Below, in pieces: positions 2 through 34,351 of a stretch of 52,438 bases of DNA. The stretch comes from an uncultured Rickettsiales bacterium (GTDB lineage: Bacteria; Pseudomonadota; Alphaproteobacteria; Rs-D84): positions 1-52,438 of the forward strand of contig URSG01000004.1 in the NCBI GenBank assembly GCA_900550565.1. Reading direction: 5' to 3'. The notes under the pieces were generated by a model. It was given only the letters and a program-made list of their open reading frames with translations. It was not told the DNA's origin and searched no databases. Within the stretch, counting starts at the first letter, position 1. Every line of letters starts with the position of its first letter. Position numbers and translations under genes: made by a program.

Positions 2-241
2 TGCCTGGGAATTACCAAACCGTCATATATGCCGCGCAGCCGTATTGCCAAACTGTTGGCCCCGAACCAAAGTGGCCAAATGCCGGATTGGGACGGTCTG
101 TGGGTGACATTTCAATCAAATGAATATACCGACGCCGGACAGCGGTCACTGATGTCGGTGCCACGAAATACAACATCTAAAACCGTCGGCGCATACCGCA
201 GGTGTATGTTTAGACGCGGTTATTTACTGCGCGCCAGTTGA
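2..241 (+). CDS. 3' end of an unidentified CDS entering from upstream (partial)
   Basis: The frame is open from the window edge to TGA at 239-241 and is followed by a hairpin plus T-run. No family was recognised. ddl would be expected upstream of ftsQ, but its C-terminal motifs are not convincing here. Confidence 0.25.
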   Translation, partial: CLGITKPSYMPRSRIAKLLAPNQSGQMPDWDGLWVTFQSNEYTDAGQRSLMSVPRNTTSKTVGAYRRCMFRRGYLLRAS

Positions 242-256
242 TTTTAAATTTTATTT

Positions 257-283
257 GCCCCCGCTTTTATCGTGGGGCTTTTT
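257..283 (+). terminator. rho-independent terminator
   Basis: GCCCC...GGGGC hairpin (257-278) followed by TTTTT. Confidence 0.55.
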
Positions 284-300
284 GTGATATAATTATCATT

Positions 301-981
301 ATGAAACGAACAATCTGGTTTTGGCTGTATTTTATTATCGCGATTTTATTGGCGATATACTTTTCTGTGCGAATAATAATGACGACGATGGGTCATACGA
401 CGGTATCGCGCGTACACAGTATTTCTATATCTGCCGATGTTCGGGACAAGGATTTATCCGCCCTGGCGACGGCGGCGGCGATTGCGCCTGGGACGGGCGC
501 GTTTTCGGTTGACCTGGACGCACTGAACGCGCGCGTGGGCGCGGTGCCGGGGGTGCGCGCGTCGGCGGTTCATCGTCGCGCAGATGGCAATTTGGTGGTG
601 CGTGTAAAGTTATACCGGGCCGTTGCCCTGTGGACCGATGGCCAGAATTATTTTCCGCTGTCTGCGGACGGGACAATCGTGAACCAGCCTGACGCCGAAC
701 GCAAATCTGGCACAGTGCTGTTTCGTGGGCCACTGCCATCAGACGTTGGCGAAATCACAAACGTTGCGCATAATTTAATTGGAAATCTGGATTATATGGA
801 ATGGATTGAAAATCGTCGCTGGAATTTAATCACAACCGGTGGCACAACGATTTTGTTGCCTGAAAAAAATCCAGACGACGCGATTGCCCAACTGATTGTC
901 TTGGACAAGAATCACAAGATTTTATCACGTGACATTAAAACAATAGATATGCGTGACAGCGCACGAATATTGGTAAAATAA
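301..981 (+). CDS. ftsQ: cell division protein FtsQ-like (N-terminal TM helix plus POTRA-like region)
   Basis: ATG at 301 gives MKRTIWFWLYFIIAILLAIYF, a TM helix. Size and position immediately upstream of ftsA fit FtsQ. The ORF-track start at 238 is probably an N-terminal overextension. Confidence 0.7.
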   Translation: MKRTIWFWLYFIIAILLAIYFSVRIIMTTMGHTTVSRVHSISISADVRDKDLSALATAAAIAPGTGAFSVDLDALNARVGAVPGVRASAVHRRADGNLVVRVKLYRAVALWTDGQNYFPLSADGTIVNQPDAERKSGTVLFRGPLPSDVGEITNVAHNLIGNLDYMEWIENRRWNLITTGGTTILLPEKNPDDAIAQLIVLDKNHKILSRDIKTIDMRDSARILVK

Positions 982-8350: not shown

Positions 8351-10120
8351 TTAGTTTTTCTTGCGAACCTGGATATGGTCTTCGCGCAGTTGTTGTTCTG
8401 TGACCGGCGACGGCGACCCCATCATTAAATCCTGGCCACGTTGATTGGTTGGGAACAACACAACCTCGCGCAAATTCGGTTCACGACGCATAATCTGAAC
8501 CAATCGGTCAATACCGAACGCACATCCGCCGTGCGGTGGCGCGCCGTATTGAAATGCAGTGTACATTCCGCCAAACTTTGCCTTGACGGTTTCTTCGTCG
8601 TATCCCGTAATGTCAAAACATTTAACCATAATTTCTGGGTTAAAGTTTCGCAGACCACCACTGCAAATTTCGGCACCATTTAATACCATATCAAACTGGG
8701 CCGCCTTGATTGACAATGGGTCACGCGTGTTCAATTCGTCCAATGTTGCCATCGGGAACGAGAACGGATTATGTGTAAACGCAATTCCTGTCGGTGATTC
8801 TGGGTCTGCTTCAAAGAACGGGAATTCTTCTATCCAGCACAGACGGAAATCGTTCGGGTCAATCAGTCCTAAATCATCACCCAATTTATTGCGCAGTTTC
8901 CCAGCAGCCTTGGCAGCGGTGTCAGCCGCGTCACAGACAAAGAACAATGATGCGTTATCGCCTGCGATTTCATGCAGTTTTGCGATACGGTCTGCGTCCA
9001 GTTTTTTGGCAACAGGACCTTTGGCCTCGCCTGCAAAGACGATATAACCCAGTCCGCCCAATCCCAATTCTTTGACGGCATAATCACCCAGTTTATCAAA
9101 CCAACTGCGTGGTTTATCTGCGGAATTCGGTGCCGGAATCGCGCGAACAACCGCGCCGTCTTCAATCGCATTTGCAAAGATTCCAAAATCAGACCCACGG
9201 AAAATTTCCGTCACATCAGATATGATAATCGGATTGCGCAAATCTGGTTTATCCGAACCATATTTCAACATCGCTTCGTCAAATGGGATATGCGGAATAT
9301 CCGGGCATACATTTGCACCTGGGACGAATTCGCGAATAATCGCCGGAATCAATTCATTGCCCACCGCCTGAATATCCGGCAGGTCAACAAACGACATTTC
9401 CATATCCAACTGGTAAAATTCCAGCAAACGGTCTGCGCGCAAATCTTCGTCGCGGAAACACGGGGCAATTTGAAAATAGCGGTCAAATCCAGAAATCTGA
9501 ATCAACTGTTTAAACTGTTGCGGTGCCTGGGGCAATGCATAGAACATACCGTGATGATTACGTGACGGCACGATAAAGTCACGCGCGCCCTCTGGGCTGG
9601 ACACGGTCAAAATTGGTGTCTGGAATTCAGAAAATCCCATTTCCCACATTTTGTCGCGCATAAATTTAATCATACGATTGCGGAACAAAATATTCTGGTG
9701 CAATGATTCACGACGCAAATCAATATAACGATATTTTAAACGCAAATCTTCGGACACAGTATCATCGTCGCCAAACACCTGGAACGGCAAAATATTTGCA
9801 CTGGTCAACACGTCCCATTTTGTGGCCCGAATTTCAATCGCGCCGGTTGGAATTTTATCATTGACCGCAGACGCGTCACGCGCAACAACCGTGCCAGTAA
9901 TTTGAATCACAGATTCTGGACGCACACGTTCCAGTGCCTCGTCCCCACCGTCAAACACGCATTGTGTAATTCCATAATTATCGCGCAGGTCAATAAACAG
10001 CAATGACCCGTGGTCACGCTTGCGATGAACCCAGCCCGACAGCACAACAGTTTGCCCGACATTGGACGAATTTAATTCGCCACACGTATGCGTTCTGTAT
10101 TTAGATTTTAATGATACCAT
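8351..10120 (-). CDS. aspS: aspartate--tRNA ligase
   Basis: Class II aaRS motifs (FRDEDLRADR, GGCAFGIDRL) and the N-terminal OB fold. The start is placed at MVSLKSKYRTHTCGEL (ATG 10120), not the ORF-track start at 10264. Confidence 0.95.
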   Translation of the reverse strand: MVSLKSKYRTHTCGELNSSNVGQTVVLSGWVHRKRDHGSLLFIDLRDNYGITQCVFDGGDEALERVRPESVIQITGTVVARDASAVNDKIPTGAIEIRATKWDVLTSANILPFQVFGDDDTVSEDLRLKYRYIDLRRESLHQNILFRNRMIKFMRDKMWEMGFSEFQTPILTVSSPEGARDFIVPSRNHHGMFYALPQAPQQFKQLIQISGFDRYFQIAPCFRDEDLRADRLLEFYQLDMEMSFVDLPDIQAVGNELIPAIIREFVPGANVCPDIPHIPFDEAMLKYGSDKPDLRNPIIISDVTEIFRGSDFGIFANAIEDGAVVRAIPAPNSADKPRSWFDKLGDYAVKELGLGGLGYIVFAGEAKGPVAKKLDADRIAKLHEIAGDNASLFFVCDAADTAAKAAGKLRNKLGDDLGLIDPNDFRLCWIEEFPFFEADPESPTGIAFTHNPFSFPMATLDELNTRDPLSIKAAQFDMVLNGAEICSGGLRNFNPEIMVKCFDITGYDEETVKAKFGGMYTAFQYGAPPHGGCAFGIDRLVQIMRREPNLREVVLFPTNQRGQDLMMGSPSPVTEQQLREDHIQVRKKN

Positions 10121-10615
10121 TTTGGTCCCTTTTTGTTTTATTCCCCAGGTGCCAAAATAATGATTGATTGAATTCGGCACCCAAATGATTTTCACAGGGG
10201 CGCGGAATCCGCGCGGTGCCACCCTGAATTTATAACTTGCTACATGCACACCCCCCCATTCCATGGTTGTCAGTCATATCAACACGGGTCAGGTATGTAT
10301 TTCACACAATATTATAATCAAAAAATACCACCCTGCAACAATAAAAATTCCCAATAATTGGGGATTTTTATTCATTCATTTTGCTTTCCGGCAATATGTT
10401 TCCAAATATATTTGGTTCAACGGCACGCCACTTTAATTTGCTTTCTAAATCCTTGTACTTATATTTAGTTATATTGCAAAAAGCAGGTAAAATAAACAAT
10501 ACGTATTACGAATCTTAACCATATTTTTTGAATCAATAACCCACAAAGAATATAACAGATTGTATTGAAGTTGATTTCAAAAAACACATAGGATAGAATT
10601 ATATCCATAATAAGA

Positions 10616-12148
10616 GTGTATTACAGCATGAAAGATATATCAAATATATTCAACTTATCACCAAATGAATTAGAAAAAAAATCTAAATCAACCAGATCAT
10701 TATGGTCTGATACAGCACCACAAATTGTAGAATTTGCACAAAAACTTTCAAAATTTATTATCAAATCTGACACCCCGTATGTATTGGCTCTGGACGGTGG
10801 TTATGGAACAGGTAAAACCCATTTTTCTAGTAGATTTAGTATATTGTTAGACAAACGTCTAAGAACAATATATTTTAGCGCATGGGAACAAGATTATATG
10901 GTTGACCCATTTGTTGTATTTTCTGAAAAAATTATATGGATTGCTAGAAAGCAAGCGAATGAAACGGAAATTACAGATAAAATCTTAGAATCCTTAGCAA
11001 AAGCAACAAAAATTAGAGCCGAATTTGGCATTTGGGGATTATTCAAGGTTGAGGCAGAACTCTCCGGTGAAGACCTCATAAAAAAATTATTTCCCGAAAA
11101 ACAACGTTCTGACCTATTTATTGAATTGAAAGTTTTGCTATCTAATTTTATACAAAATTTACCAAATAAAAAACTAGTTATGATTGTTGATGAATTAGAT
11201 AGATGTCGTCCCGACTACGCTGTAAAAATACTAGAAACAATTAAACATTTTTTTGATATTCCTGGGCTTATTTTTATTCTTCCTATAAATTCCAAAAAAT
11301 TAAACACTTATGTGAAAGGTTTTTATAATATTCCAAACGATACTTTCGCCGACGGGGAGGATTATTTACAAAAATTTATAAATGAAACTATTGACGTACC
11401 ACAACTGAACTACAACAAAATTTGTGAAGACAGAATAAAACTTGCTGATTTTGGTCACCATATATCAAATATAGAAGGAAATTTTAATAGTATACAAGAA
11501 TTGAAAAAATGGATCGCCGAATACGCAAAACAAGCACATCTTTCATATAGGGAAACCATCGAGATAATAAAACGTGCTAAATATTTTTGTAAAAATTATT
11601 CAGAAGAAATAAGATGCAGATTACTGGCCTACCAATTATGCAATAAATTATACAAACAAAAGAATAAAAATTCTTCTAATCCAGCTACTAGGGCTTCAAC
11701 ATTAAAATTCGAAAAAAATTATATGTATAAAGAGGGCTATGAAGAATCTCAAAAAGAAATACTGCTAAAAGCAGATTTATTTAATGCTCATACACGATTA
11801 GAATTTCCAGGCCACGCAACCACTTCAAACGTACAAAATATTTGTCATAACATCTCTTCGCTACAACAAAACGCATATTCTTATAAGATAATGTTTTCTA
11901 CTATTGAAAAAATTAAAAACGAATTAAATAAAATAGACATAGAACATTATGTTCCTTACCAATCTTATTGGAGCACCGTAACGAAAGCTCAACTCCGTGA
12001 AAAGGTTCAATGTATACAAAATTATTTGAATCAAGCTAAGCAAAACTTATCAAATTTCCAACAAATAACAGGTTCGGATGATTCTGACGATGAAAGATTA
12101 TCTAGATATGAGGAAAAAATAAAAAATCCAACATCACTATTCAAATAA
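10616..12148 (+). CDS. KAP-family P-loop NTPase
   Basis: Walker A LDGGYGTGKTHF, Walker B LVMIVDELDRCRPDYAVKILETIKHFF (the KAP DELDRC signature) and a long helical C-terminal tail. The start is GTG 10616 or ATG 10628. Confidence 0.8.
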   Translation: MYYSMKDISNIFNLSPNELEKKSKSTRSLWSDTAPQIVEFAQKLSKFIIKSDTPYVLALDGGYGTGKTHFSSRFSILLDKRLRTIYFSAWEQDYMVDPFVVFSEKIIWIARKQANETEITDKILESLAKATKIRAEFGIWGLFKVEAELSGEDLIKKLFPEKQRSDLFIELKVLLSNFIQNLPNKKLVMIVDELDRCRPDYAVKILETIKHFFDIPGLIFILPINSKKLNTYVKGFYNIPNDTFADGEDYLQKFINETIDVPQLNYNKICEDRIKLADFGHHISNIEGNFNSIQELKKWIAEYAKQAHLSYRETIEIIKRAKYFCKNYSEEIRCRLLAYQLCNKLYKQKNKNSSNPATRASTLKFEKNYMYKEGYEESQKEILLKADLFNAHTRLEFPGHATTSNVQNICHNISSLQQNAYSYKIMFSTIEKIKNELNKIDIEHYVPYQSYWSTVTKAQLREKVQCIQNYLNQAKQNLSNFQQITGSDDSDDERLSRYEEKIKNPTSLFK

Positions 12149-12158
12149 CTTTTTAAGT

Positions 12159-12187
12159 TTGCAATAACGCTTTTCATATACTAAAAT
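12159..12187 (+). promoter_or_regulatory. sigma70-type promoter of leader RNA copy A1
   Basis: -35 TTGCAA (12159-12164), 17-bp spacer, -10 TAAAAT (12182-12187). The predicted start is G at 12195. Confidence 0.65.
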
Positions 12188-12194
12188 CTGTACC

Positions 12195-12415
12195 GAATCC
12201 ATGGGGACGTGGGTTCGGGGTCGTTCAAAACCCATAATTGCACGGTGTGAAAACATCGTTATCCGTTTTTGACAGCATAATGGTGTTTTTACACTGTTTT
12301 GCCTGGCCTTTTGGTCGGGTGTCTGTGGCTATATAACAGGTTCGCCGAAATCCACAGGGTCATTGCAATTATGATTTTGAAAATACCCGACCGTCATTCC
12401 CTTGGCGGTCTTTTT
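12195..12415 (+). ncRNA. structured leader / riboswitch-like RNA, copy A1 (class unknown)
   Basis: 221 nt, 100% identical to 15081-15301. It has a 14-bp helix (12242-12255 / 12284-12297), a G.U-rich hairpin (12301-12320), an alternative 8-bp pairing (12313-12320 / 12385-12392), and a terminator (12389-12410) plus T-run. The G.U pairs only work on the plus strand. Confidence 0.7.
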
Positions 12416-12435
12416 TTGCATCAACGGTGGTAAAA

Positions 12436-12894
12436 ATGAAAAAAATAATATTTGTTCTTCCAACAATACTTTTGTGTTCGTGCGCAATTCATTACCCGTA
12501 TACAGGTACAAAAACCATAACAGGCGAAGGCGGCTTTATAGAAAAGTATATTCCCGTTGAACATATTGGCCGTTCTATTTTTGAAAAAGAAATAGATTCT
12601 AAATACGATGGCATTTCATTTTACCGCTCGGGTCTGCCCATGGGGGCAAAATGCACATTAAAGGGATATATAGCAGAATCAAACCTTACGGACGTTGCAA
12701 AATCTGCACTTAAACAAGGGGCAAATGTAGCAACAAAATCAACTATTAAATTATCAAAGAGTTTTGATGATAACAGCGGCCAACTTGATGGAACTTGGGC
12801 CGCTGGGGATTGGTATTATTTATATGATCGGCGGTGGTATAACTGGTATTGGATCAAATTTGCCAAAGGATATAACATTTTTGAATGCAAATAA
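12436..12894 (+). CDS. small exported protein / putative lipoprotein
   Basis: MKKIIFVLPTILLCSCA is a signal peptide with a Cys-containing lipobox-like end. The ATG lies 21 nt after the A1 terminator. Trp/Tyr-rich C-terminus. Confidence 0.5.
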   Translation: MKKIIFVLPTILLCSCAIHYPYTGTKTITGEGGFIEKYIPVEHIGRSIFEKEIDSKYDGISFYRSGLPMGAKCTLKGYIAESNLTDVAKSALKQGANVATKSTIKLSKSFDDNSGQLDGTWAAGDWYYLYDRRWYNWYWIKFAKGYNIFECK

Positions 12895-12910
12895 TAAAAA
12901 GGAACTATCG

Positions 12911-13507
12911 ATGTCAAAATTTAATGAAATTTTTAGTTCTATCCAAATAATTTTGATAATCGTCAAAGCACTTGGTGGATTTCCAGATACAAATTGGCTT
13001 GCGGTGTTTTTTCCAGCATACATTATGATTGGTGTAGAATATTTCAAAATGCTCAATAACAAACCAACAGTTACAAAATCTACAGACCCAAATAGTCAAA
13101 AAATAAATCTTCCTATAAAAAATAACAATGGTGATTTATTTTACCTTTTAATTAATCCTATTTTGGAAGAGCACAACTTATTACAAGATTATTCCATAGT
13201 TTTCTTTAATGAGGTATTTGGGAAACCAGAATTATTTGAATATATCGGGAATATTGACGTTGTGAGTAAATTTGCAACAGATGCCGAATATATCAAATAC
13301 CTATGTGGTGAACGAAAAGAATTTTTCAATGAACTAGTTGCCAGCAAGGGCGCGACATTGAATACTATGATAGGCGTTCTCCTGGATACTCAAGCCAAAG
13401 CAATCGGACTAGTCGCAATTTGGGACACATCTAAAACAATGATGACAACAGACGGAAATTTACGCATAGAATTCACCCAGCTGCCTGTTGGTGTTATATA
13501 TGATTAA
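12911..13507 (+). CDS. hypothetical membrane protein (two N-terminal TM helices plus a soluble domain)
   Basis: ATG 12911 is preceded by AAAAGGAA. The ORF-track start at 12764 overlaps the previous gene and is probably too far upstream. Confidence 0.45.
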   Translation: MSKFNEIFSSIQIILIIVKALGGFPDTNWLAVFFPAYIMIGVEYFKMLNNKPTVTKSTDPNSQKINLPIKNNNGDLFYLLINPILEEHNLLQDYSIVFFNEVFGKPELFEYIGNIDVVSKFATDAEYIKYLCGERKEFFNELVASKGATLNTMIGVLLDTQAKAIGLVAIWDTSKTMMTTDGNLRIEFTQLPVGVIYD

Positions 13508-13743
13508 GACTACTTTAATAGATTAAAAAAACGATCACTAACAAACGCAAAGTAGATGGTGCATTTCTGGTGCCCATACTTAATAAAAGTTTGGACAACT
13601 GGAACGGATTCTATAATGAAATAATCAAAACAAAGAAAGCGGCATTGCCGATATTTTACGCATTGCGAATGGAAGGTCTATGCCCGCCAAGAAAACCAAA
13701 TAAGCAATCACCAGAAAAGAATAAGAATTATGGATATTAATAA

Positions 13744-14589
13744 CTATGATTTTACAATCAACCTCAGCGCAACTTCTTGATCAGAAATCCAAGCCTCTTG
13801 GTGGTTATGATAAACAGATAATCTTGCATCTAACTCATTCATTCTTGCTGTAAATTCCATTTTTTGCATCGGACTAGTTGGAGCAACGCTTATTTTTTCG
13901 TATTCTTTTGAACACCAATTTTGAAAATCTTTTGAGTCTTGTATTTTACGACGAATCAAAAAATCATTTGTCATAGACGATGCATATTTATAAGCATCCA
14001 AAACTGTATGTTGGCCATCTCCGTCAACATCATATGGATTTTTTATCCATTTGAAAAAGTAATACAAAAATACATTCGCGGCCCAATTGCATTCCGACTC
14101 TATGCTTTGATAGCTTAAAGAAGGGTAGAAATTGCTAGCTCCTACAACACAAATCTTAGATTGGCGAGGCATATTAAATATACCTGAATAACATTGACCT
14201 AATAACAACAGGCCATCTGTCACCCCAGGTATTTGTTGCATCGTATCCAACAACTCCGATGGTTTAATTCCTTCCATTCCATCTATACTACCATGAGAAG
14301 AAACAACGCAACCCAAAAAAGCAATATCTTTAAATGTTTTTAATTTTGGTATTAATTGGTCTATATTGTATAGTTGCCCTGAAGATAATCCATTGGCTTC
14401 TAGGAATGTACTTGCACTAGGCAAACCGGTAAAATAATAAATATTATCTTCGCGATCATTTTGACGCTCTTTTATTATTCTTGCCGCATTGATAATATCA
14501 AACATAAACCTCGGTGTATCATCCCTGCCACAAACAAATACCCATTTTGTATCTTGATTTGGGTTGACACGCGACAAAATATGGACCAT
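13744..14589 (-). CDS. caspase-like (clan CD) cysteine peptidase-like protein
   Basis: Each putative catalytic residue follows a hydrophobic strand: FLGCVVSSHG (His99-Gly100) and GLLLLGQCYSG (Cys133). The 34-aa His-Cys spacing fits clan CD. Confidence 0.5.
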   Translation of the reverse strand: MVHILSRVNPNQDTKWVFVCGRDDTPRFMFDIINAARIIKERQNDREDNIYYFTGLPSASTFLEANGLSSGQLYNIDQLIPKLKTFKDIAFLGCVVSSHGSIDGMEGIKPSELLDTMQQIPGVTDGLLLLGQCYSGIFNMPRQSKICVVGASNFYPSLSYQSIESECNWAANVFLYYFFKWIKNPYDVDGDGQHTVLDAYKYASSMTNDFLIRRKIQDSKDFQNWCSKEYEKISVAPTSPMQKMEFTARMNELDARLSVYHNHQEAWISDQEVALRLIVKS

Positions 14590-14591
14590 GA

Positions 14592-14873
14592 CTAATCCTT
14601 TTCGAATATCACAGGATCTGTTTCATCATATTTCTTGTCGTCTGGAAGACCTATAATTGCATTCCCATTTTTGTCCAACAAATATTTATTGCCACTTAAA
14701 CGCAATATATACTTAGTTCCCAATGAATCAAAACCATCTTTTTGCGCGAATAATCCCAACTGCCCGGCATTTATCATGTCCTTAATTTGTGGAGTGAGCA
14801 TTGTTAAGTCTGAATTATAATTCAAAATCACTTTTTGCCTCTTTTTTATTTTTTGATGGCGATTATTGCGCAT
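14592..14873 (-). CDS. hypothetical small protein, operonic with the peptidase-like gene
   Basis: Its stop is 2 nt upstream of the ATG of the downstream ORF. No SD is obvious, so the start is uncertain. Confidence 0.4.
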   Translation of the reverse strand: MRNNRHQKIKKRQKVILNYNSDLTMLTPQIKDMINAGQLGLFAQKDGFDSLGTKYILRLSGNKYLLDKNGNAIIGLPDDKKYDETDPVIFEKD

Positions 14874-15045
14874 AACTACTACTTAGTAGCGCTTGTATTA
14901 TATCACAATTTGAAGCCATTTTATAGTCAATTTGAACATTTGCAAGAAATAAAAAATCCCCTGTCGTGAGAAAGGGTATATTTCTTTACTACAATGTTAT
15001 AATATATATTCGTCTTTTTTCAAGCCCAATCATACTTTATTTAAA

Positions 15046-15074
15046 TTGCAATGACTGTCTTAATGTACTAAAAT
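15046..15074 (+). promoter_or_regulatory. sigma70-type promoter of leader RNA copy A2
   Basis: -35 TTGCAA (15046-15051), 17-bp spacer, -10 TAAAAT (15069-15074). The spacer sequence differs from copy A1, but the hexamers and spacing are conserved. Confidence 0.65.
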
Positions 15075-15080
15075 TATATT

Positions 15081-15301
15081 GAATCCATGGGGACGTGGGT
15101 TCGGGGTCGTTCAAAACCCATAATTGCACGGTGTGAAAACATCGTTATCCGTTTTTGACAGCATAATGGTGTTTTTACACTGTTTTGCCTGGCCTTTTGG
15201 TCGGGTGTCTGTGGCTATATAACAGGTTCGCCGAAATCCACAGGGTCATTGCAATTATGATTTTGAAAATACCCGACCGTCATTCCCTTGGCGGTCTTTT
15301 T
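15081..15301 (+). ncRNA. structured leader / riboswitch-like RNA, copy A2 (class unknown)
   Basis: Identical to 12195-12415 over all 221 nt. It ends in the same terminator, 18 nt before the ATG at 15320. Confidence 0.7.
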
Positions 15302-15319
15302 ATATCAAAAGGATAAATT

Positions 15320-15571
15320 ATGATTTACAAATTATACACTGGCGGCCAACCTATATTGGCCTTATTGGAACTGATTGCGGGGATATGCATCCCGGCACTC
15401 ATGTTAGGCGGAGTCATAGAATTGTTCGGACTGGCCGATACGTATGTAGGACAAGATAAAACACTAAGTCTTGTTTTTGGCGCGCTGGGTTTCTTTGCAT
15501 GCATGTTCGTATATCAATACATCGCATATAATTTATTGCCAAAATTACTAAAAACAAAGGACACAAAATGA
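15320..15571 (+). CDS. small integral membrane protein
   Basis: SD AAAGGA upstream of the ATG. The 83-aa product has 2-3 hydrophobic helices. Confidence 0.5.
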   Translation: MIYKLYTGGQPILALLELIAGICIPALMLGGVIELFGLADTYVGQDKTLSLVFGALGFFACMFVYQYIAYNLLPKLLKTKDTK

Positions 15572-15924
15572 AAAAGATAATAATTGCGCTGATTATATGT
15601 ATGACCGCTGTAACTGGTTATGCACGCACTATGAGCGTAGAGCAATTTGATAGAGAACACGCAGCATACCAACAAGAACTTTATAAAACCGCCCGCGAGG
15701 CTGGATATGACCCGACATCTAAAAAATCCATCGCGGAGCAATACAAAGCTAAACGATTGACCGAACAGACCATAAAACATCGTCTACAATTACAACAGGA
15801 ATACGAGCGAGAATACAACCGATATATCTGGTTAGAAAAAAACAAATCAATGCTGCTGTTTGCGCTGGCAGCAATCGGTGTTTTATCCATTTTTGTGGCA
15901 AGCCGTTACAAAAAGCATAAATAG
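15568..15924 (+). CDS. small exported / C-terminally anchored coiled-coil protein
   Basis: ATGA overlap with the previous ORF. It has a signal peptide (MKKIIIALIICMTAVTGYA) and a C-terminal TM helix. Confidence 0.5.
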   Translation: MKKIIIALIICMTAVTGYARTMSVEQFDREHAAYQQELYKTAREAGYDPTSKKSIAEQYKAKRLTEQTIKHRLQLQQEYEREYNRYIWLEKNKSMLLFALAAIGVLSIFVASRYKKHK

Positions 15925-15981
15925 GTCAATATGGCAATATTTTAAGGCTGTCTAACGATTTTCCAAACGAGAATTCTTTAA

Positions 15982-16055
15982 TGGTGCCCTAAGCAAGAAT
16001 CGGACTTGCGACTCGTCCTTACCAAGGACGTGTTTTACCACTAGACTATTAGGGC
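15982..16055 (-). tRNA. tRNA-Thr (anticodon GGU)
   Basis: The reverse complement GCCCTAATAGTCTAGTGGTAAAACACGTCCTTGGTAAGGACG...TTAGGGCACCA folds as a cloverleaf with encoded CCA. Confidence 0.9.
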
Positions 16056-16161
16056 AACTTTACCATTGCCCCGCAATTATACGGTATTGCACCTAAAAAT
16101 CAAGAATAAAAAAACACACATGTCGCAGGTGAAATCCGGCGTCCCTGGTGTCACAATTACC

Positions 16162-16190
16162 AAAAATTAAACCCCGATACAAATCGGGGT
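16162..16190 (-). terminator. rho-independent terminator after tRNA (CAU)
   Basis: On the minus strand, ACCCCGAT-TTGT-ATCGGGGT followed by a T-rich run. Confidence 0.7.
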
Positions 16191-16198
16191 TGAATTTT

Positions 16199-16275
16199 TG
16201 GTAGCGGGAGAGGGACTTGAACCCCCGACACGTGGATTATGATTCCACTGCTCTAACCAGCTGAGCTATCCCGCC
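16199..16275 (-). tRNA. tRNA with CAU anticodon (elongator Met or Ile2/lysidine)
   Basis: The reverse complement GGCGGGATAGCTCAGCTGGTTAGAGCAGTGGAATCATAATCCAC...CCCGCTACCA folds as a cloverleaf. It is not initiator-like, because position 1-72 is a G-C pair. Confidence 0.9.
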
Positions 16276-16416
16276 AATGCGACGCATTATAACAGACTTT
16301 TTCCCGATTGCAAGAAACAAATAACGCCACCAAAGGCAAAGAAATCGTTCCTGTTGAAAAATCGTTATGTTTTTTAATAAATTCATTTGAATAATGGCTG
16401 AAAATAGTGTATCATT

Positions 16417-16980
16417 ATGCGCATGAAAAAAATCGCATTATTTTTATCCACGTTATTATTTGCGACCAACGCTATGGCCGACCAGAACGTGTTTTTTGGC
16501 AAATATGAAAATCAAATTGCATTTCATCTTGGCCAGGGCATAGACAGTGGTTTCTTGGTTCCGCCACCTGCGCGTCCGGTGCCGTTTTATATGTTGCACA
16601 TCCAGTATTCCCAGCCGACGACGTTTTTTCGCCTTCCTGCGCGCCAGTCATTAAATATCGGCCAGACGTTGGGTTTTGGTAAAAAATACGGTTGGAATTG
16701 GGAAAAATACACAATTCCAATGGTATTTATCAGCGAAGACGTTGTGTTATTCAGTGGCAAAAAATGGTATTATGCCAATGGCATTGGCGTTGGCCTGCAG
16801 GCGCAACAGAACGAACGTCTGGGGGCAAAGTTATTATTTCAATGGAAAATGATTGGCGGATATAAATTAAACGACCGCACAAACATTGAATTATTTATGC
16901 AGCATTTTTCTAATGCCAACACCGCCAAGGCCAATTATTCATACGCATTTTACGGTCTGGGCATTACGTATAATTTCTGA
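16417..16980 (+). CDS. PagL-like lipid A 3-O-deacylase / acyloxyacyl hydrolase outer-membrane protein
   Basis: Signal peptide, beta-barrel-like alternation, the HFSNA motif (PagL His/Ser) and a C-terminal F. Confidence 0.6.
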   Translation: MRMKKIALFLSTLLFATNAMADQNVFFGKYENQIAFHLGQGIDSGFLVPPPARPVPFYMLHIQYSQPTTFFRLPARQSLNIGQTLGFGKKYGWNWEKYTIPMVFISEDVVLFSGKKWYYANGIGVGLQAQQNERLGAKLLFQWKMIGGYKLNDRTNIELFMQHFSNANTAKANYSYAFYGLGITYNF

Positions 16981-16990
16981 GAGCGCAGAT

Positions 16991-17022
16991 AAAAAAACCA
17001 CCGGCAAATGCCGGTGTTTTTT
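16991..17022. terminator. bidirectional rho-independent terminator between pagL-like and ung
   Basis: A-run, then CACCGGC-AAAT-GCCGGTG, then T-run. Confidence 0.75.
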
Positions 17023-17683
17023 ACCACTCTATCGGTGTTTTGCCATGCTGAATTAAATACTGGTTCGCGCGCGAAAAATGATGATTGCCAAAAAATCCAC
17101 GATACGCCGACAGTGGTGACGGGTGCGCTGATTTCAAAATCAGATTACGCGCCGGGTCAACAAATTCCGCCTTGCGCTGGGCGGACGCGCCCCACAACAT
17201 ATAAACAATATTATCCCGGTGTGCAACCGCACGAATAACCGCGTCTGTAAATTGTTCCCAACCGTGGCCTGCGTGTGATGCCGCACGATGTGCCGCCACC
17301 GTCAATGTTGAATTTAACAGCAATACCCCCTGGCGCGCCCAGGCGGTTAAATCGCCGTGTGTCGCACTGGGCCGCCCCAGGTCAGATTCAATTTCACGAT
17401 AAATATTTACCAGACTGGGTGGCACAGGTGTCGGTGGCAAAACCGAAAAACACAACCCGTGTGCCTGGCCCGGTTCGTGATATGGGTCTTGGCCGATAAT
17501 CACAACCTTGACATCTGGCAACGGGCATAAATTAAACGCATTAAATATATTTTTTGGTTCGGGGAAAACCTGGTGTCCAGACAGATATTGCGCACGAACA
17601 AAATCCGTCAATTTGATAAAATAATCTTTGTCAAATTCGTCGGCCAATGCCGTTTTCCACGATTCTTGTATTTTTATATTCAT
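17021..17683 (-). CDS. ung: uracil-DNA glycosylase
   Basis: GQDPYH and HPSPLSA motifs. The start is placed at MNIKIQESW (ATG 17683), which overlaps the upstream stop as ATGA. Confidence 0.93.
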   Translation of the reverse strand: MNIKIQESWKTALADEFDKDYFIKLTDFVRAQYLSGHQVFPEPKNIFNAFNLCPLPDVKVVIIGQDPYHEPGQAHGLCFSVLPPTPVPPSLVNIYREIESDLGRPSATHGDLTAWARQGVLLLNSTLTVAAHRAASHAGHGWEQFTDAVIRAVAHRDNIVYMLWGASAQRKAEFVDPARNLILKSAHPSPLSAYRGFFGNHHFSRANQYLIQHGKTPIEW

Positions 17684-18342
17684 AGTTTTATCAATCCTGT
17701 TTGCAAAGATTTCCATAACACCACATCAATATATCCACGTGGCAACCCCGTCACAGCGCACAAATGGTCAAACATTTTATCGCACGCCGCGCGAACATCG
17801 CAATTTAATTTACCATTATCAACCAACGCGCACAACGCTGTGTTTCCGCTGTATCGCACCCCCAGTCGTTGAATCCAGATATCGTATTTTACAACATCTT
17901 CGCCCAGGTTTCGCGCCAAATGATTTGCGGTAATTTTTCCAATATGTGGCAACCCAGATAAAAAATTCAACCGCGAATTTGTATCAGATAATTTATAGTA
18001 TTCTGAACATATTTCATCGCGCATTTCCCAAATTTTACAAATCGCCGCGATTTTATTTTTATTATGAAAAATTGAAAACAGATAATCAAAATCTGCACCA
18101 CGCGCACGCAGTGCAGACATTATTTTTTCGTGAATATTCTTGGCTGTTTTTTGCGAAAAGCCACCGGCCAAGATAACATAGGCGCAATTTTCCGCAAACG
18201 CGTCCGGCGTGCAAACACGCCGCTGTGACAGATTATCGCGTATTTCATCAAACGATTGTGCATCGCTGTCCGCGCCCATCGCGCGCAATTTTTTATCCAA
18301 CCCAAAGAACCATTCAGCCGTAAAAATATTGACGATGCACAT
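17680..18342 (-). CDS. HhH-GPD superfamily DNA glycosylase-like protein
   Basis: The helix-hairpin-helix LPHIGKITANHLARNLG followed by KYDIWIQRL parallels the Nth pattern LPGVGRKTAN...VDTHIFRV. Confidence 0.55.
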   Translation of the reverse strand: MCIVNIFTAEWFFGLDKKLRAMGADSDAQSFDEIRDNLSQRRVCTPDAFAENCAYVILAGGFSQKTAKNIHEKIMSALRARGADFDYLFSIFHNKNKIAAICKIWEMRDEICSEYYKLSDTNSRLNFLSGLPHIGKITANHLARNLGEDVVKYDIWIQRLGVRYSGNTALCALVDNGKLNCDVRAACDKMFDHLCAVTGLPRGYIDVVLWKSLQTGLIKL

Positions 18343-29492: not shown

Positions 29493-29569
<77 letters not shown>

Positions 29570-30505: not shown

Positions 30506-30525
30506 ATTTTTCCCCTCTTTTTATT

Positions 30526-30728
30526 AAAAAATTAAACCACCAACAAGATTGGTGGTCGGGGAGTTGGTGTCAGCAAACAAATGCTCCGTCCCTTTCGGTA
30601 AACGGCTCCCCAACCATAAAAGCCAGGGATGATAACGATGCAAAAAGCACCGAAAACATCAGATTACGATGCTTTTGCACCGTGTTTGCGGGCCACCACA
30701 GCCCCGAAACCCAAATCTCTTTGGATTC
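30526..30728 (-). ncRNA. structured leader / riboswitch-like RNA, diverged copy B (same family as A1/A2)
   Basis: It starts with GAATCCA like A1/A2 and shares TGGGTT(T)CGGGG and CACGGTG-AAA-CATCGT-ATC (19/23 identical). The equivalent helices carry compensatory changes. It has a GAAA tetraloop hairpin, a 10-bp antiterminator pairing (30615-30606 / 30563-30554) and a terminator CCACCAA-TCTTG-TTGGTGG (30555-30537) plus T-run. Confidence 0.6.
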
Positions 30729-30735
30729 ACGTTTT

Positions 30736-30764
30736 ATTATAATATTAAATCAATAAAATTTCAA
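30736..30764 (-). promoter_or_regulatory. sigma70-type promoter of leader RNA copy B
   Basis: On the minus strand: -35 TTGAAA (30764-30759), 17-bp spacer, -10 TATAAT (30741-30736), then 7 nt to G at 30728. Confidence 0.65.
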
Positions 30765-30788: not shown

Positions 30789-31406
30789 CTATAAAAAGCA
30801 TTTTTTTAGTGTTTCGCCGGTATCATTTTGGTCAACGCGTTTGTTGCGGATTTCTTCGGCGGCCTTTATTTTTTGTTTTACTAAAATTAAATCTGGGTGC
30901 GCTTGTAATTCTGTGTTTAGTTCATCAACCGCCGCTGATATATCAGACTGTTTTCTGACAAAAATTGGTGTAATAGAATCGGCAGCGTTATAAACAGAAC
31001 GCTGTAATTCCGATTTAAAATCATCAATCACAGATAAATACGCACGAATATGACCGTCTTCGTGTGACAAAATCGCGTTGTATGAACACGATTCCGGCAC
31101 ATGGCGCATATCTATCTGAACCAGAAAATTAGTGTATCCAACCGATGCAGTGACTGATTTTATTGCGATGCAAAAACCATCTTCTATTGATGTAATATCG
31201 GCAACAATATCATAATTATCTGACAGTGTTGCAATCACATTTCCGTGTAATAAATCCATTGGTTCCAGTGGTTGAACAACCTCTTTGGTCCAGGACGGAC
31301 TGTCAATATAAACCGCTGGATTTAATTTATACGGCAAACAATCGTCGGCCCACCCAGGTGTTGCCATCACAGATAAAATTAAAATTGCAACTTTGCGGAA
31401 ATACAT
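30789..31406 (-). CDS. secreted HExxH-motif protein (DUF922-like putative Zn-peptidase)
   Basis: Signal peptide MYFRKVAILILSVMATPGWA and the motif SHEDGHIRAY. An alternative start at 31427 would overlap the end of virB4. Confidence 0.45.
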   Translation of the reverse strand: MYFRKVAILILSVMATPGWADDCLPYKLNPAVYIDSPSWTKEVVQPLEPMDLLHGNVIATLSDNYDIVADITSIEDGFCIAIKSVTASVGYTNFLVQIDMRHVPESCSYNAILSHEDGHIRAYLSVIDDFKSELQRSVYNAADSITPIFVRKQSDISAAVDELNTELQAHPDLILVKQKIKAAEEIRNKRVDQNDTGETLKKCFL

Positions 31407-31410
31407 ATCA

Positions 31411-33825: not shown

Positions 33826-33828
33826 TTT

Positions 33829-34125
33829 TTATGCCGCCAGTTTATTTGGTATTTTCTTTTTGAAAAGTTGTATTTGTGCCGCCAATATTTGTCCCAACTG
33901 GGGGTCACGTTTTGAAAACGCGGCCAAAATCGCATGTGTCACACACAGAACTAATAAAAACCACATTGGGCTGACCGGGTCATTACCATTAGTTATTATC
34001 AATGATAAAACAAAAATACCAATAAAAACAATGAACAACACGGCGAAATTTATCACCGCCAATGTATATGGCACGTAAAATATACGTGCAGGATTTGCCA
34101 ATGCTTTCAGTACTTGTTGTTTCAT
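33829..34125 (-). CDS. virB3: VirB3-like type IV secretion protein
   Basis: MKQQVLKALANPARIFYVPYTLAVINF plus two TM helices. It is directly upstream of virB4, with a 3-nt gap. The ORF-track start at 34185 is probably overextended. Confidence 0.6.
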   Translation of the reverse strand: MKQQVLKALANPARIFYVPYTLAVINFAVLFIVFIGIFVLSLIITNGNDPVSPMWFLLVLCVTHAILAAFSKRDPQLGQILAAQIQLFKKKIPNKLAA

Positions 34126-34166
34126 TTGGATTCTTATTCTCTGCTCTCTTGCCTGAATTATAACAA

Positions 34167-34351
34167 TTTCAACAGTTTTCAACAAGTATAAAAAGTAAAT
34201 TACTAAAATTGTTGAAATTGTGGAAAATTACTATTTTTTCAACATGTTTATATCTGTGTCTGCGAATTCAACAGAACACACAAAAATACCGAAAAACCTG
34301 GTTTTTTATGTTGAAAACTTGTTTAAAAAAAGTTTAAAAATATTATCAACA
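34167..34351. promoter_or_regulatory. array of TTTCAACA / TGTTGAAA motifs in the virB3-rpmJ divergent intergenic region
   Basis: Exact copies are at 34167, 34177 and 34237 (forward) and 34210 and 34309 (inverted). 7/8 variants are at 34219 (TGTGGAAA), 34266 (ATTCAACA) and 34344 (TATCAACA). Confidence 0.5.

Follow-up and report, generated by a model that had tools for sequence, protein, structure and literature searches.

The two identical units found in the window (the whole stretch of 52,438 nucleotides that was analysed) are, as far as sequence comparison can tell, copies of a leader that is a previously uncatalogued, highly structured RNA family, and this leader is probably an on/off transcription switch for the genes downstream of it. 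The family, its promoter, its covarying fold, the terminator, a covarying alternative helix and the gene context were all obtained computationally. A covariance model places three leader copies of about 212 nt within these 52 kb, and together with more than 150 members ahead of surface, envelope and defence genes, they suggest RNA-based master control over the pool of variable genes. The hosts are uncultured gut and rumen Alphaproteobacteria (Candidatus Enterousia / order Rs-D84) with genomes below 1 Mb, and we know of no work on gene regulation in these bacteria. The coordinates of all features are given in Table 1.

Units, copies and family members

By direct string comparison, positions 12195-12415 and 15081-15301 agree at 221 of 221 bases, as the preliminary description had claimed. 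Since the two units also have the -10 hexamer region in common, a repeat finder stretched the match to 232 nt (12184-12415 / 15070-15301; 98% identity). The common elements 5' of the units are TTGCAA, (AC)TAAAAT and the 17 bp spacing, with spacer letters that are unlike, and at the 3' end both units close with the hairpin GACCGTC-N8-GGCGGTC and a T-run (T7 in copy 1, T5 in copy 2), past whose fifth T they diverge; both the limited sharing upstream and the renewed divergence downstream had been described correctly. The units were also said to be richer in G+C than the surrounding island, and the values are 0.44-0.46 and 0.30-0.36, respectively. The plus strand, previously deduced from G.U pairs, is in agreement with the fold energies (-94.5 kcal/mol, z = -7.6, on the plus strand and -63.2 kcal/mol, z = -3.1, on the minus strand), and conserved G.U pairs of the plus strand (e.g., U4.G in P1 and G.U in P3) favour it, since they would be A.C mismatches on the opposite strand.

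Duplication during assembly, which had been named as a possible explanation, is ruled out, because both copies are present in an independent assembly (L003), where they differ at 2 positions, and other strains carry one copy. The picture of two units holds for the two identical copies, but a third, divergent copy on the minus strand (30515-30728) had been missed. One weak model match at 144-377 (19.5 bits, CYK 6.2), upstream of an FtsQ-like ORF, was judged to be due to chance. The proposed count of copies among relatives now exceeds 150 distinct members. Scanning genomes returned 105 matches, nearly all of them in Candidatus Enterousia or in MAGs of uncultured gut Alphaproteobacteria, and even a strict pattern found as many as 4 copies in one genome; covariance model R1 yielded 101 full matches in these loci (130-248 bits) and 57 further members on metagenome contigs fetched by an independent 3' pattern.

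At gathering threshold, Rfam reports only three tRNAs in the whole window and no family for the unit, and permissive scans of copy 1 and copy 3 returned matches at chance level only. Neither 72,556 plasmids nor 50,697 phage records matched the unit by BLAST, a pattern scan of viral contigs gave 0 matches, and features of an IS or MITE, another explanation considered beforehand, were not found for the unit.

In a census of 97 distinct upstream regions, the conserved part consists of the -35/-10 hexamers only, which are sigma-70-like and stand at a fixed distance from the predicted +1, while leader conservation begins exactly at the +1 G. Together with the covarying body and the covarying 3' hairpin with its U-run, this supports the earlier idea of a discrete RNA that reaches from the predicted start to the terminator.

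Table 1. Coordinates of the leader copies, their promoters, helices and genes, and of the cassette between copies 1 and 2.
Feature	Position	Strand	Details
Copy 1 promoter	12159-12187	+	-35 TTGCAA 12159-12164, 17-bp spacer, -10 TAAAAT 12182-12187; consensus scan
Copy 1 predicted +1	G12195	+	7 nt downstream of -10
Copy 1 leader RNA	12195-12417	+	covariance-model match 157.1 bits; fold z = -7.6
Copy 1 P1	12195-12202/12209-12216	+	GNRA loop GGGA
Copy 1 P2a	12224-12229/12376-12381	+	
Copy 1 P2b	12235-12242/12365-12371	+	
Copy 1 P3	12243-12248/12253-12258	+	GAAA loop
Copy 1 P4	12281-12285/12292-12296	+	
Copy 1 P5	12301-12307/12314-12320	+	
Copy 1 P6	12323-12328/12352-12357	+	UUCG loop
Copy 1 alternative antiterminator helix	12313-12322/12383-12392	+	covariation
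Copy 1 terminator	12389-12395/12404-12410	+	followed by T7 12411-12417
Gene of copy 1	12436-12894	+	152-aa predicted lipoprotein-like ORF (MKKIIFVLPTILLCSC...)
ORF after copy 1 gene	12911-13507	+	198 aa
Variable cassette	12416-15080		locus comparison; includes copy 2 promoter
Copy 2 promoter	15046-15074	+	-35 TTGCAA 15046-15051, 17-bp spacer, -10 TAAAAT 15069-15074
Copy 2 predicted +1	G15081	+	
Copy 2 leader RNA	15081-15301	+	covariance-model match 160.3 bits; identical to copy 1
Copy 2 alternative antiterminator helix	15199-15208/15269-15278	+	
Copy 2 terminator	15275-15281/15290-15296	+	followed by T5 15297-15301
First gene of copy 2	15320-15571	+	83-aa two-TM membrane protein
Second gene of copy 2	15568-15924	+	118-aa signal-peptide/TM protein; overlaps 83-aa gene
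Third leader copy, divergent	30515-30764	-	including promoter; covariance-model match 154.6 bits (30728-30515)
Third copy promoter	30764-30736	-	TTGAAA 30764-30759, 17-bp spacer, TATAAT 30741-30736
Third copy leader start	G30728	-	
Third copy terminator	30557-30551/30541-30535	-	followed by U-run
Gene after third copy	30505-30122	-	RBS, ATG 30505; 127-aa secreted-type ORF

Fold of the leader and the proposed switch

In the family fold, 96.1% of cells are paired, against 37-46% when the partners are slid, and double (compensatory) changes occur at 39 of 63 pairs, values reached in 0 of 500 shuffles, where it should be considered that an alignment made with a covariance model tilts toward the modelled structure and that several of the compensatory changes come from single lineages. 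GNRA, UUCG and CUUG loops are swapped among members, the loops of P3 and P4 carry insertions of variable length, and the conserved unit from the +1 to the terminator stem measures 180-227 nt (median 212). In place of P3 and P4, a single 16-bp hairpin was considered, and in the covariation of the first alignment the two models score indistinguishably; it was ruled out because the insertions, seen in members from the independent pattern, fit only local hairpins, and two members (L074, L046) compensate locally within P3/P4. A further helix, Px (GGGCU/AGCCC around the 5' strand of P2a), is a weak candidate. A leader peptide or small ORF was rejected, as neither the ATG at 12201 nor the TTG ORF at 12299-12433 is conserved and the helices vary through compensatory substitutions and through indels of lengths not divisible by three.

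The stem of the predicted terminator covaries (helix 11), and a median of 6 of the 9 bases right after it are T. From the terminator to the downstream RBS there are 15-30 nt, and a Shine-Dalgarno sequence and the start codon of a co-oriented ORF directly follow in 89 of 101 family cases. The alternative helix (columns 147-159 / 244-254) is 95.6% paired, with double changes at 6 of 10 pairs, and overlaps the 3' arm of P5 as well as the terminator's 5' arm. Covariation links column 246 to column 156 (UA in 7 sequences) and not to G29 (9 sequences unpaired); column 130, with which column 156 can also pair, varies in the same lineage. As this helix crosses P2, either a pseudoknot is formed or P2 must open. 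As a second covarying helix that overlaps the terminator and excludes it, the alternative helix indicates an attenuation switch, and the leader has what is expected of an attenuation leader: a 5' UTR position between its own promoter and a gene (in the same 89 of 101 cases), and a terminator and an antiterminator pairing that exclude each other and are both conserved. In a computation that ignored the 5' half of the RNA and tertiary structure, the terminator state came out as more stable in 88 of 98 members.

In the mechanism that we propose, each unit would be the 5' leader of an mRNA whose first base, set by a sigma-70-type promoter, is the G of GAAUCC. Its first ~212 nt would fold into the GNRA-capped 5' hairpin P1 and a junction, shut by the long-range helices P2a and P2b and bearing hairpins P3, P4, P5 and P6, and the intrinsic terminator would come right after this fold, at the distance given above from the ribosome-binding site; as this terminator lies between leader and RBS, the downstream gene would be transcribed solely by read-through. 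In the default, stabler state, the G-rich GGUCGGGGAG would be held in hairpin P5 with CCCUGAC, the terminator GACCGCC/GGCGGUC would form, and an RNA of ~215 nt would be let go. In the alternative state, GGUCGGGGAG would pair with CUCCCCGACC and use up the 5' arm of the terminator, the RNA would adopt a fold similar to sRNA-Xcc1 (an outer helix around P6 and a second hairpin), and polymerase would read on into the gene. We infer conditional termination, the way in which the switch is thrown and an effector that tips the balance, which might be a small molecule, a protein or an RNA. One common signal would govern much of the variable gene pool in these tiny genomes, since the same leader precedes many unrelated accessory genes. 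To a leader acting in cis, with a conserved fold and a terminator/antiterminator switch that governs read-through into the downstream gene, we give a better than even chance.

Sensing of tRNA in the manner of a T-box was suggested by a UGG beside the antiterminator, and was dropped because this UGG lacks conservation and the downstream genes have nothing to do with amino acids; a CsrA-type sponge was dropped because GGA is rare in the loops. The family is large and shows much covariation, which makes it suitable as it stands for structure modelling and for screens with ligands or proteins.

Likeness to sRNA-Xcc1 and to other leaders

The Rfam model of sRNA-Xcc1 (RF02221; 87 nt, gathering threshold 53 bits) aligns full-length to the alternative fold of one family member (L067) with 41.5 bits (E about 2e-6), while other members reach 33.2 and 28.3 bits and a bona fide sRNA-Xcc1 72.6 bits. 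The threshold was passed by 0 of the 18 family loci scanned, and the window copies gave no match to this model at E<=10. Our model R1 recovers only the P6 core in bona fide sRNA-Xcc1 (5.2 bits), so the relationship is distant. In consensus-type members the 3' half spans the whole 87-nt model: the outer helix GUCGGGGAG/CUCCCCGAC resembles GUCGGGAGU/ACUCCCGAC of bona fide Pseudomonas sRNA-Xcc1, a GNRA loop caps the first hairpin, whose internal loop is A-rich (UAUAAAAUA/GAAAG in the leader, AAUACAAGA/GAAUA in sRNA-Xcc1), and the second hairpin is GAAUCAU/AUGAUU. Of this architecture, the outer helix of ~9 bp and the first hairpin are present and covary in the leaders, and the Xcc1-like second hairpin H2, which competes with the covarying P2a/P2b, is 95% pairable and nearly invariant. 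Similarly to the leader, sRNA-Xcc1 is multi-copy in some genomes, and on accessory DNA it directly precedes cargo genes of the same orientation, namely symE in integron cassettes of Xanthomonas, an ORF6N gene in APSE phage and a BRO gene on a Pseudomonas plasmid; one bona fide member sits 38 nt ahead of a gene that runs in the same direction. Relatives of sRNA-Xcc1 have been found in integron cassettes (bioRxiv 10.1101/2025.06.18.660453).

The leader differs in being ~2.5 times longer, with the Xcc1-like part embedded in its 3' half, so that its unit of 180-227 nt is not a stand-alone transcript of ~87 nt as in sRNA-Xcc1. The Xcc1-like pairing is one of two in the leader, the other engaging a 5' domain of ~110 nt that is missing from sRNA-Xcc1; an explicit hairpin-plus-U terminator follows, and the hosts are Rs-D84 Alphaproteobacteria. 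sRNA-Xcc1 is described as a trans-acting sRNA under HrpG/HrpX control; on a Northern blot it was an RNA of ~88 nt, described as trans-acting (PMC2996969). We put forward only tentatively, as possible rather than probable, that this is a new large leader class whose sRNA-Xcc1-type domain is the sensor, with one cellular or host signal switching on much of the accessory pool and sRNA-Xcc1 being, by extension, cis-acting. If true, the pool so switched would comprise surface proteins, envelope-modifying enzymes and anti-phage systems of reduced-genome gut symbionts, and the sRNA-Xcc1 elements that many Proteobacteria carry in integron cassettes, phages and plasmids would be cis switches for cargo and not (only) trans-acting sRNAs. 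The partial likeness offers a testable hypothesis for a widespread and poorly understood element.

Compared by description, the Brt RNAs (Brt1-9) are also lineage-specific, multi-copy, structured alphaproteobacterial RNAs of ~200 nt, each copy directly upstream of a co-oriented gene and with a putative terminator at its end. In Bartonella there are nine Brt copies of 194-203 nt, each with a gene behind it; the RNAs are strongly expressed, the genes downstream are silent, and a riboswitch-like read-through switch, perhaps also a trans-acting RNA, was proposed (PMC5387305). Unlike the leaders, which precede unrelated genes with no HTH regulators in the Pfam census, Brt RNAs all precede helix-turn-helix regulators (trp genes), and they were reported to be confined to Bartonella (PMC5387305).

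The order of promoter, structured leader, terminator and RBS is that of transcriptional riboswitches (e.g., c-di-GMP class I/II), and mutually exclusive terminator and antiterminator pairings are common to riboswitches, attenuators and the leader. Second-messenger riboswitch regulons are rich in surface and secreted proteins, as is the regulon of the leader, which, unlike theirs, also holds restriction-modification and helicase genes. No similarity of the leader to Rfam riboswitch models was found, and its sensor-like Xcc1-type domain differs in lying at the 3' side, overlapping the expression platform.

Genes served, rival readings and cassette exchange

The gene of copy 1 belongs to no Pfam family and was negative in PADLOC, and the module of leader and homologous gene is also present in two other genomes (L045, L112). 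Every related strain and species that was examined has kept the copy 2 leader ahead of the 83-aa gene; no Pfam family was found for the 83-aa and 118-aa proteins, and homologues of the former fall into three clusters only, so that it is of little reach as a search handle. Throughout the family, the genes served include lipoproteins, glycosyltransferases, restriction-modification and other defence genes, and small membrane proteins. A Pfam census of 69 of these genes gave 24 families, mostly with one member each, and most genes without a family, i.e., no functionally coherent regulon. Such genes without a common function are unlike those of classical metabolite riboswitches and give no clue to a ligand.

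We regard it as unlikely that the leader is primarily a stand-alone, abundant trans-acting sRNA of ~215 nt, protected by hairpins at its 5' and 3' ends, that many genes produce and that acts on other mRNAs or sequesters a protein, its upstream position being secondary or the RNA having a dual function. Each copy is a complete promoter-to-terminator unit, the computed stability of the terminator state would probably make the short RNA the main product, and there are precedents in the Northern RNA of sRNA-Xcc1 (PMC2996969) and in the expressed Brt RNAs with silent downstream genes (PMC5387305); however, 89 of 101 copies have an RBS and an ORF of the same direction within a few tens of bases downstream, where a separate promoter cannot fit, and a covarying antiterminator helix over the terminator has no obvious role in trans. 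Such an activity would be compatible with the cis model. Decidedly improbable, in our view, is a processive-antitermination or polymerase-modifying leader (HK022 put, EAR RNA or NusG-paralogue type), by which the RNA or a recruited factor would make polymerase ignore both the terminator right behind the leader and later ones in AT-rich, horizontally acquired operons. RfaH/LoaP/UpxY-type systems serve accessory, horizontally mobile genes, and the leader stands directly after the promoter of accessory, mobile and functionally mixed genes, with a large conserved fold and no coherent metabolic regulon, but its covarying exclusive pairings suggest a structural terminator/antiterminator switch, and Rfam shows no resemblance to the put or EAR families.

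That the units are a mobile repeat or recombination site (MITE, attC-like or att), conserved because it spreads as DNA and with a structure that serves as single-stranded DNA or is incidental, seems very improbable to us, even though the copies edge variable cassettes, strains differ by one unit plus cassette, the two neighbouring copies are identical and integron cassettes hold relatives of sRNA-Xcc1 (bioRxiv 10.1101/2025.06.18.660453). A search of 10000-18000 gave no inverted repeats of >=30 nt, no transposase or integrase gene lies beside the copies in the window, and viral contigs, phage and plasmid records hold no matches. Every copy has a promoter before it, a terminator behind it and a fixed orientation to the next gene, and copies within one genome are strongly diverged, with compensatory changes by which RNA helices, G.U pairs and the GNRA/UUCG loops are maintained for one strand and not the other. 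That leaders recombine is more plausibly an effect of their repetition than their function.

The cassette between copies 1 and 2 contains ORFans of 152 aa and 198 aa on the plus strand and of 281 aa and 93 aa on the minus strand, and with one leader copy it makes up a 2886-bp unit that is absent in two strains (L001, L005). The preliminary description had attributed the identity of the copies to selection or gene conversion acting on an RNA; selection at the RNA level is supported by the covariation, but the perfect identity is better explained by recent leader-by-leader recombination or duplication than by selection alone, because the window's third copy has diverged strongly and some strains lack the cassette. 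Between aspS and tRNA genes lies a hot spot whose variable cassettes are bordered by leader copies, and the repeated leader provides homology for gain and loss of cassettes, with the result that adjacent copies are identical in this window; in a defence island, cassettes can thus be exchanged through a shared regulatory RNA sequence that serves as portable homology.

Two identical units and the family to which they belong

The preliminary description had reported two identical units running from a predicted transcription start to a terminator T-run, and a string comparison of copy 1 (12195–12415) with copy 2 (15081–15301) found the same base at 221/221 positions. The repeat finder returned a single family (232 nt, 98% identity; 12184–12415 and 15070–15301), its match being longer than 221 nt because the -10 region is common to both copies. 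Upstream, only TTGCAA and (AC)TAAAAT are indeed common to copies 1 and 2, with a spacing of 17 bp in each and unrelated spacers, while downstream the two part ways past the fifth T of the T-run, and the G+C content of the units (0.44–0.46) is higher than that of the island (0.30–0.36), as had been described. The folding energy was -94.5 kcal/mol for the plus strand (z = -7.6) and -63.2 kcal/mol for the minus strand (z = -3.1). The original finding is real, and its interpretation is supported.

In the regions upstream of orthologues of the 83-aa gene that follows copy 2 (80–96% protein identity), the unit is kept, with conserved blocks and compensatory changes. A degenerate pattern that combined two conserved blocks, applied to contigs of one genome per species, matched 105 stretches, nearly all from Candidatus Enterousia or MAGs of uncultured gut or rumen Alphaproteobacteria, with a maximum of 4 matches in one genome; the hosts belong to the order Rs-D84, whose genomes are mostly <1 Mb (PMC12306168). 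On these loci, the covariance model R1 (230 positions, 63 pairs) gave 101 matches of 128–248 bits, 99 of them full-length, and several weaker divergent copies; on the window it gave three copies, with 157 and 160 bits for copies 1 and 2 and 154.6 bits for copy 3. A second scan, of metagenome contigs and with a pattern solely from the 3' half of the unit, yielded 57 additional members, which show that the blocks required by the first pattern, though conserved, can vary, and brought the total to 151 distinct sequences.

Divergent or degenerate second copies (32–130 bits) were observed in the same 8-kb chunks as strong ones (see table), so the real copy number per genome is above the pattern-scan count; decay may be under way in some of them. 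In one further contig (L111, 51 bits) the 5' third (P1–P3) is intact and the 3' part unrelated, apparently a truncated or recombined leader. A candidate upstream of an FtsQ-like ORF in the window (R1 19.5 bits, CYK 6.2) was rejected as probably due to chance.

Fold, competing helices and served genes

Among 97 distinct upstream regions, the sole conserved features are the -35 TTGnnn and the -10 TAnAAT at a fixed distance, and the information content leaps to 2 bits right at the G opening GAAUCC, in agreement with the predicted transcription start. In the model-based alignment of 101 members, standard pairs occupy 96.1% of cells and both-sided changes occur in 39 of the 63 pairs; when partners were slid by 1–3 columns, pairing dropped to 37–46%, and none of 500 shuffles matched any observed measure. 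A MAFFT alignment, not fitted to structure, was 92.2% paired, with double changes in 36/64 pairs. The fold comprises a hairpin at the 5' end, closed by a GNRA loop (P1), long-range helices in which single positions show as many as four or five types of pair (P2a and P2b), a hairpin whose loop is GAAA or carries longer insertions (P3), a further helix of the leader body (P4), P5 (CCCUGAC/GUCGGGG), and P6, which has an A-rich internal loop and is capped by GNRA, UUCG or CUUG. A terminator hairpin with a covarying stem comes after the body, and the 9 bases that follow include a median of 6 T.

The 3' arm of P5 is rich in G (GGUCGGGGAG, in the window GGUCGGGUGU) and has a second complement in CUCCCCGACC (window version AUACCCGACC), whose final four bases open the terminator stem. 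This alternative helix is 95.6% paired, with double changes in 6 of 10 pairs. Columns 246 and 156, the latter in the G-rich segment, covary (G-C, n = 88; U-A, n = 7), while no covariation was found between column 246 and G29, the other candidate partner, the two being unpaired in 9 sequences. Column 130, the P5 partner of 156, changes in the same lineage with pairing kept, and locus L048 holds a second such compensatory event (GGUUAGGG with CCCUGACC), a pattern which argues that both mutually exclusive helices are under selection.

In 89 of the 101 members the terminator is followed, at a distance of a few tens of bases at most, by a Shine-Dalgarno sequence and start codon, an arrangement in which the gene should be transcribed only from the leader promoter, through the terminator. 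Signal-peptide-like N-termini are present in 42 of these 89 served genes, 15 of the 42 with lipoboxes. The Pfam families include DNA methylases, GT8/GT6 glycosyltransferases, an acyltransferase, a UvrD/GajB-like helicase, Mrr nucleases, a superinfection-immunity protein, an ankyrin/autotransporter protein and Listeria-Bacteroides repeat proteins, while the majority of served genes have no Pfam family. The regulon accordingly has no metabolic theme and consists of accessory, surface and defence genes.

We rather favour a cis-acting transcription-attenuation leader that would respond to some effector. In a simple energy evaluation, the state with P5 and terminator was stabler than the antiterminator state in 88/98 members (means of -25.7 and -19.9 kcal/mol), which suggests that termination is likely the default; read-through into the gene would then need some effector. 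A unit serving mainly as a trans-acting sRNA seems unlikely, and such a role would be compatible with the cis model, while an antitermination RNA that modifies the polymerase is, in our judgement, quite improbable. Least credible, at very low probability, is a DNA-level repeat or recombination site: the G.U pairs from which the plus strand had been deduced are conserved on this strand, tetraloops are exchanged and the orientation is fixed, which together show that the plus-strand RNA is the selected molecule.

Closest known RNA families

No Rfam family was found at threshold for the window, a unit copy or 18 family loci. In a permissive scan, the full length of the sRNA-Xcc1 model (RF02221) aligned to a consensus-type member with 41.5 bits (E ~2e-6; threshold 53), and three other members gave 28–33 bits at the same place. 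By the Rfam criterion the leader family is outside sRNA-Xcc1; it looks like an elaborated relative, 2.5 times longer, to which a 5' domain and a terminator are added. The outer helix of the sRNA-Xcc1 model corresponds to the antiterminator helix, its first hairpin to P6 and its second to GAAUCAU/AUGAUU; in the leader these two segments lie on either side of the P2b 3' strand, so their hairpin (95% pairable, nearly invariant) is exclusive with P2. A bona fide sRNA-Xcc1 on a Pseudomonas aeruginosa plasmid (72.6 bits, outer helix GUCGGGAGU/ACUCCCGAC) has a co-oriented BRO-family gene 38 nt downstream. It is already known that sRNA-Xcc1 lies upstream of symE in the most widely distributed integron cassette of Xanthomonas (bioRxiv 10.1101/2025.06.18.660453) and, in APSE phages, of an ORF6N gene (bioRxiv 10.1101/2020.03.17.996009), and a Northern blot in Xanthomonas detected it as an ~88-nt RNA (PMC2996969); the literature gives 7 copies in Xylella and 15 in Aeromonas salmonicida. 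In concept, the nearest parallel is the Bartonella Brt family of nine ~200-nt RNAs, every one upstream of a gene and with a putative terminator/riboswitch (PMC5387305).

Variable island and third copy

The window is chromosomal DNA (aspS, uvrB, a gyrB-like gene, UDG, PagL, tRNA genes). A lookup of the 83-aa protein found the same locus in many human-gut assemblies, and contigs encoding it were retrieved for comparison. The repeat is not an assembly artefact, since contig L003 has both copies, with 2 positions different between them. Two contigs (L001, L005) have the KAP-NTPase gene, a single unit and the 83-aa gene without the intervening 2.9 kb, and three (L002, L004, L006) have one unit and a PIN_8/PIN_12 gene replacing the KAP gene; more distant relatives carry DarT/DarG and Mrr, or a 449-aa gene (ORFan), at the same site. 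These differences in gene content place the unit on the border of a hyper-variable defence island beside tRNA-Thr/tRNA-Met. In L001, BLAST showed that the copy 1 promoter is joined, via the one unit present, to what follows copy 2, the arrangement that would be expected as the product of recombination between units, or as the substrate of the reverse insertion. Orthologous leaders differ by 0–2 nt from strain to strain, and copy 3 of the same window is strongly diverged from copies 1 and 2. The perfect identity of the neighbours, together with the cassette-less strains, points to recent duplication, insertion or conversion via the leader itself, and its borders are sharp because the homology of otherwise unrelated cassettes starts and stops with the RNA.

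Within the cassette, a 281-aa ORF shows, by eye, a His...Cys pattern (SSHGS ... GQCYSG) that recalls caspase-like proteases; neither it nor the 93-aa ORF upstream of it had a match in Pfam or PADLOC. In a related species (L008), the 152-aa and 198-aa pair has 82% DNA identity to the window cassette and no leader copy detectable in front, so leader and cargo can be uncoupled. Between two tRNA genes, a perfect 9-bp GC-rich palindrome (AACCCCGAT...ATCGGGGTT) with T-runs on both strands looks like a bidirectional terminator.

Copy 3, quite unlike copies 1 and 2 in sequence, has a promoter (TTGAAA-17-TATAAT) 7 nt ahead of the G of GAAUCC and a terminator of its own, after which come the RBS and ATG of a 127-aa ORF of secreted type. 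Directly upstream on the same strand is a block of type IV secretion genes plus a 212-aa ORF. This block ends at tRNA-Met and suggests a conjugative element, either integrated or remnant.

Coordinates of features in the window and in related loci
Feature	Position	Strand	Remark
Leader copy 3	30515–30728	-	
Type IV secretion genes, 212-aa ORF	30789–34185	-	
VirB3-like	33829–34185	-	
VirB4/TrbE-like	31411–33825	-	
tRNA-Met	29493–29569		
Strain-variable defence-type island	10300–16300		aspS to tRNA-Thr/tRNA-Met; loci L001–L015
aspS	8351–10264	-	
tRNA-Thr/tRNA-Met	15982–16275	-	
KAP-family NTPase	10616–12148		in island; PADLOC candidate system PDC-S20
281-aa and 93-aa ORFs	13744–14873	-	
Palindrome	16170–16191		
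Rejected candidate	144–377	+	
FtsQ-like ORF	238–981		
152-aa/198-aa pair	L008 5944–7232		
Second copy	L016 3036–3242		
Second copy	L041 7417–7655		
Second copy	L067 1532–1734		
Second copy	L074 7293–7477		
Second copy	L077 7859–8000		
Partial leader	L111 1263–1514	-	
tRNA	L032 1047–1132		example of tRNA near leader
Leader	L032 1220–1451		

In many genomes (loci L018, L021, L022, L032, L067, L070, L079, L080, L091, L095 and L102), tRNA genes were also observed within a few kb of leaders, sometimes within ~100 nt, and cassettes with a leader may preferentially gather at tRNA-linked islands.
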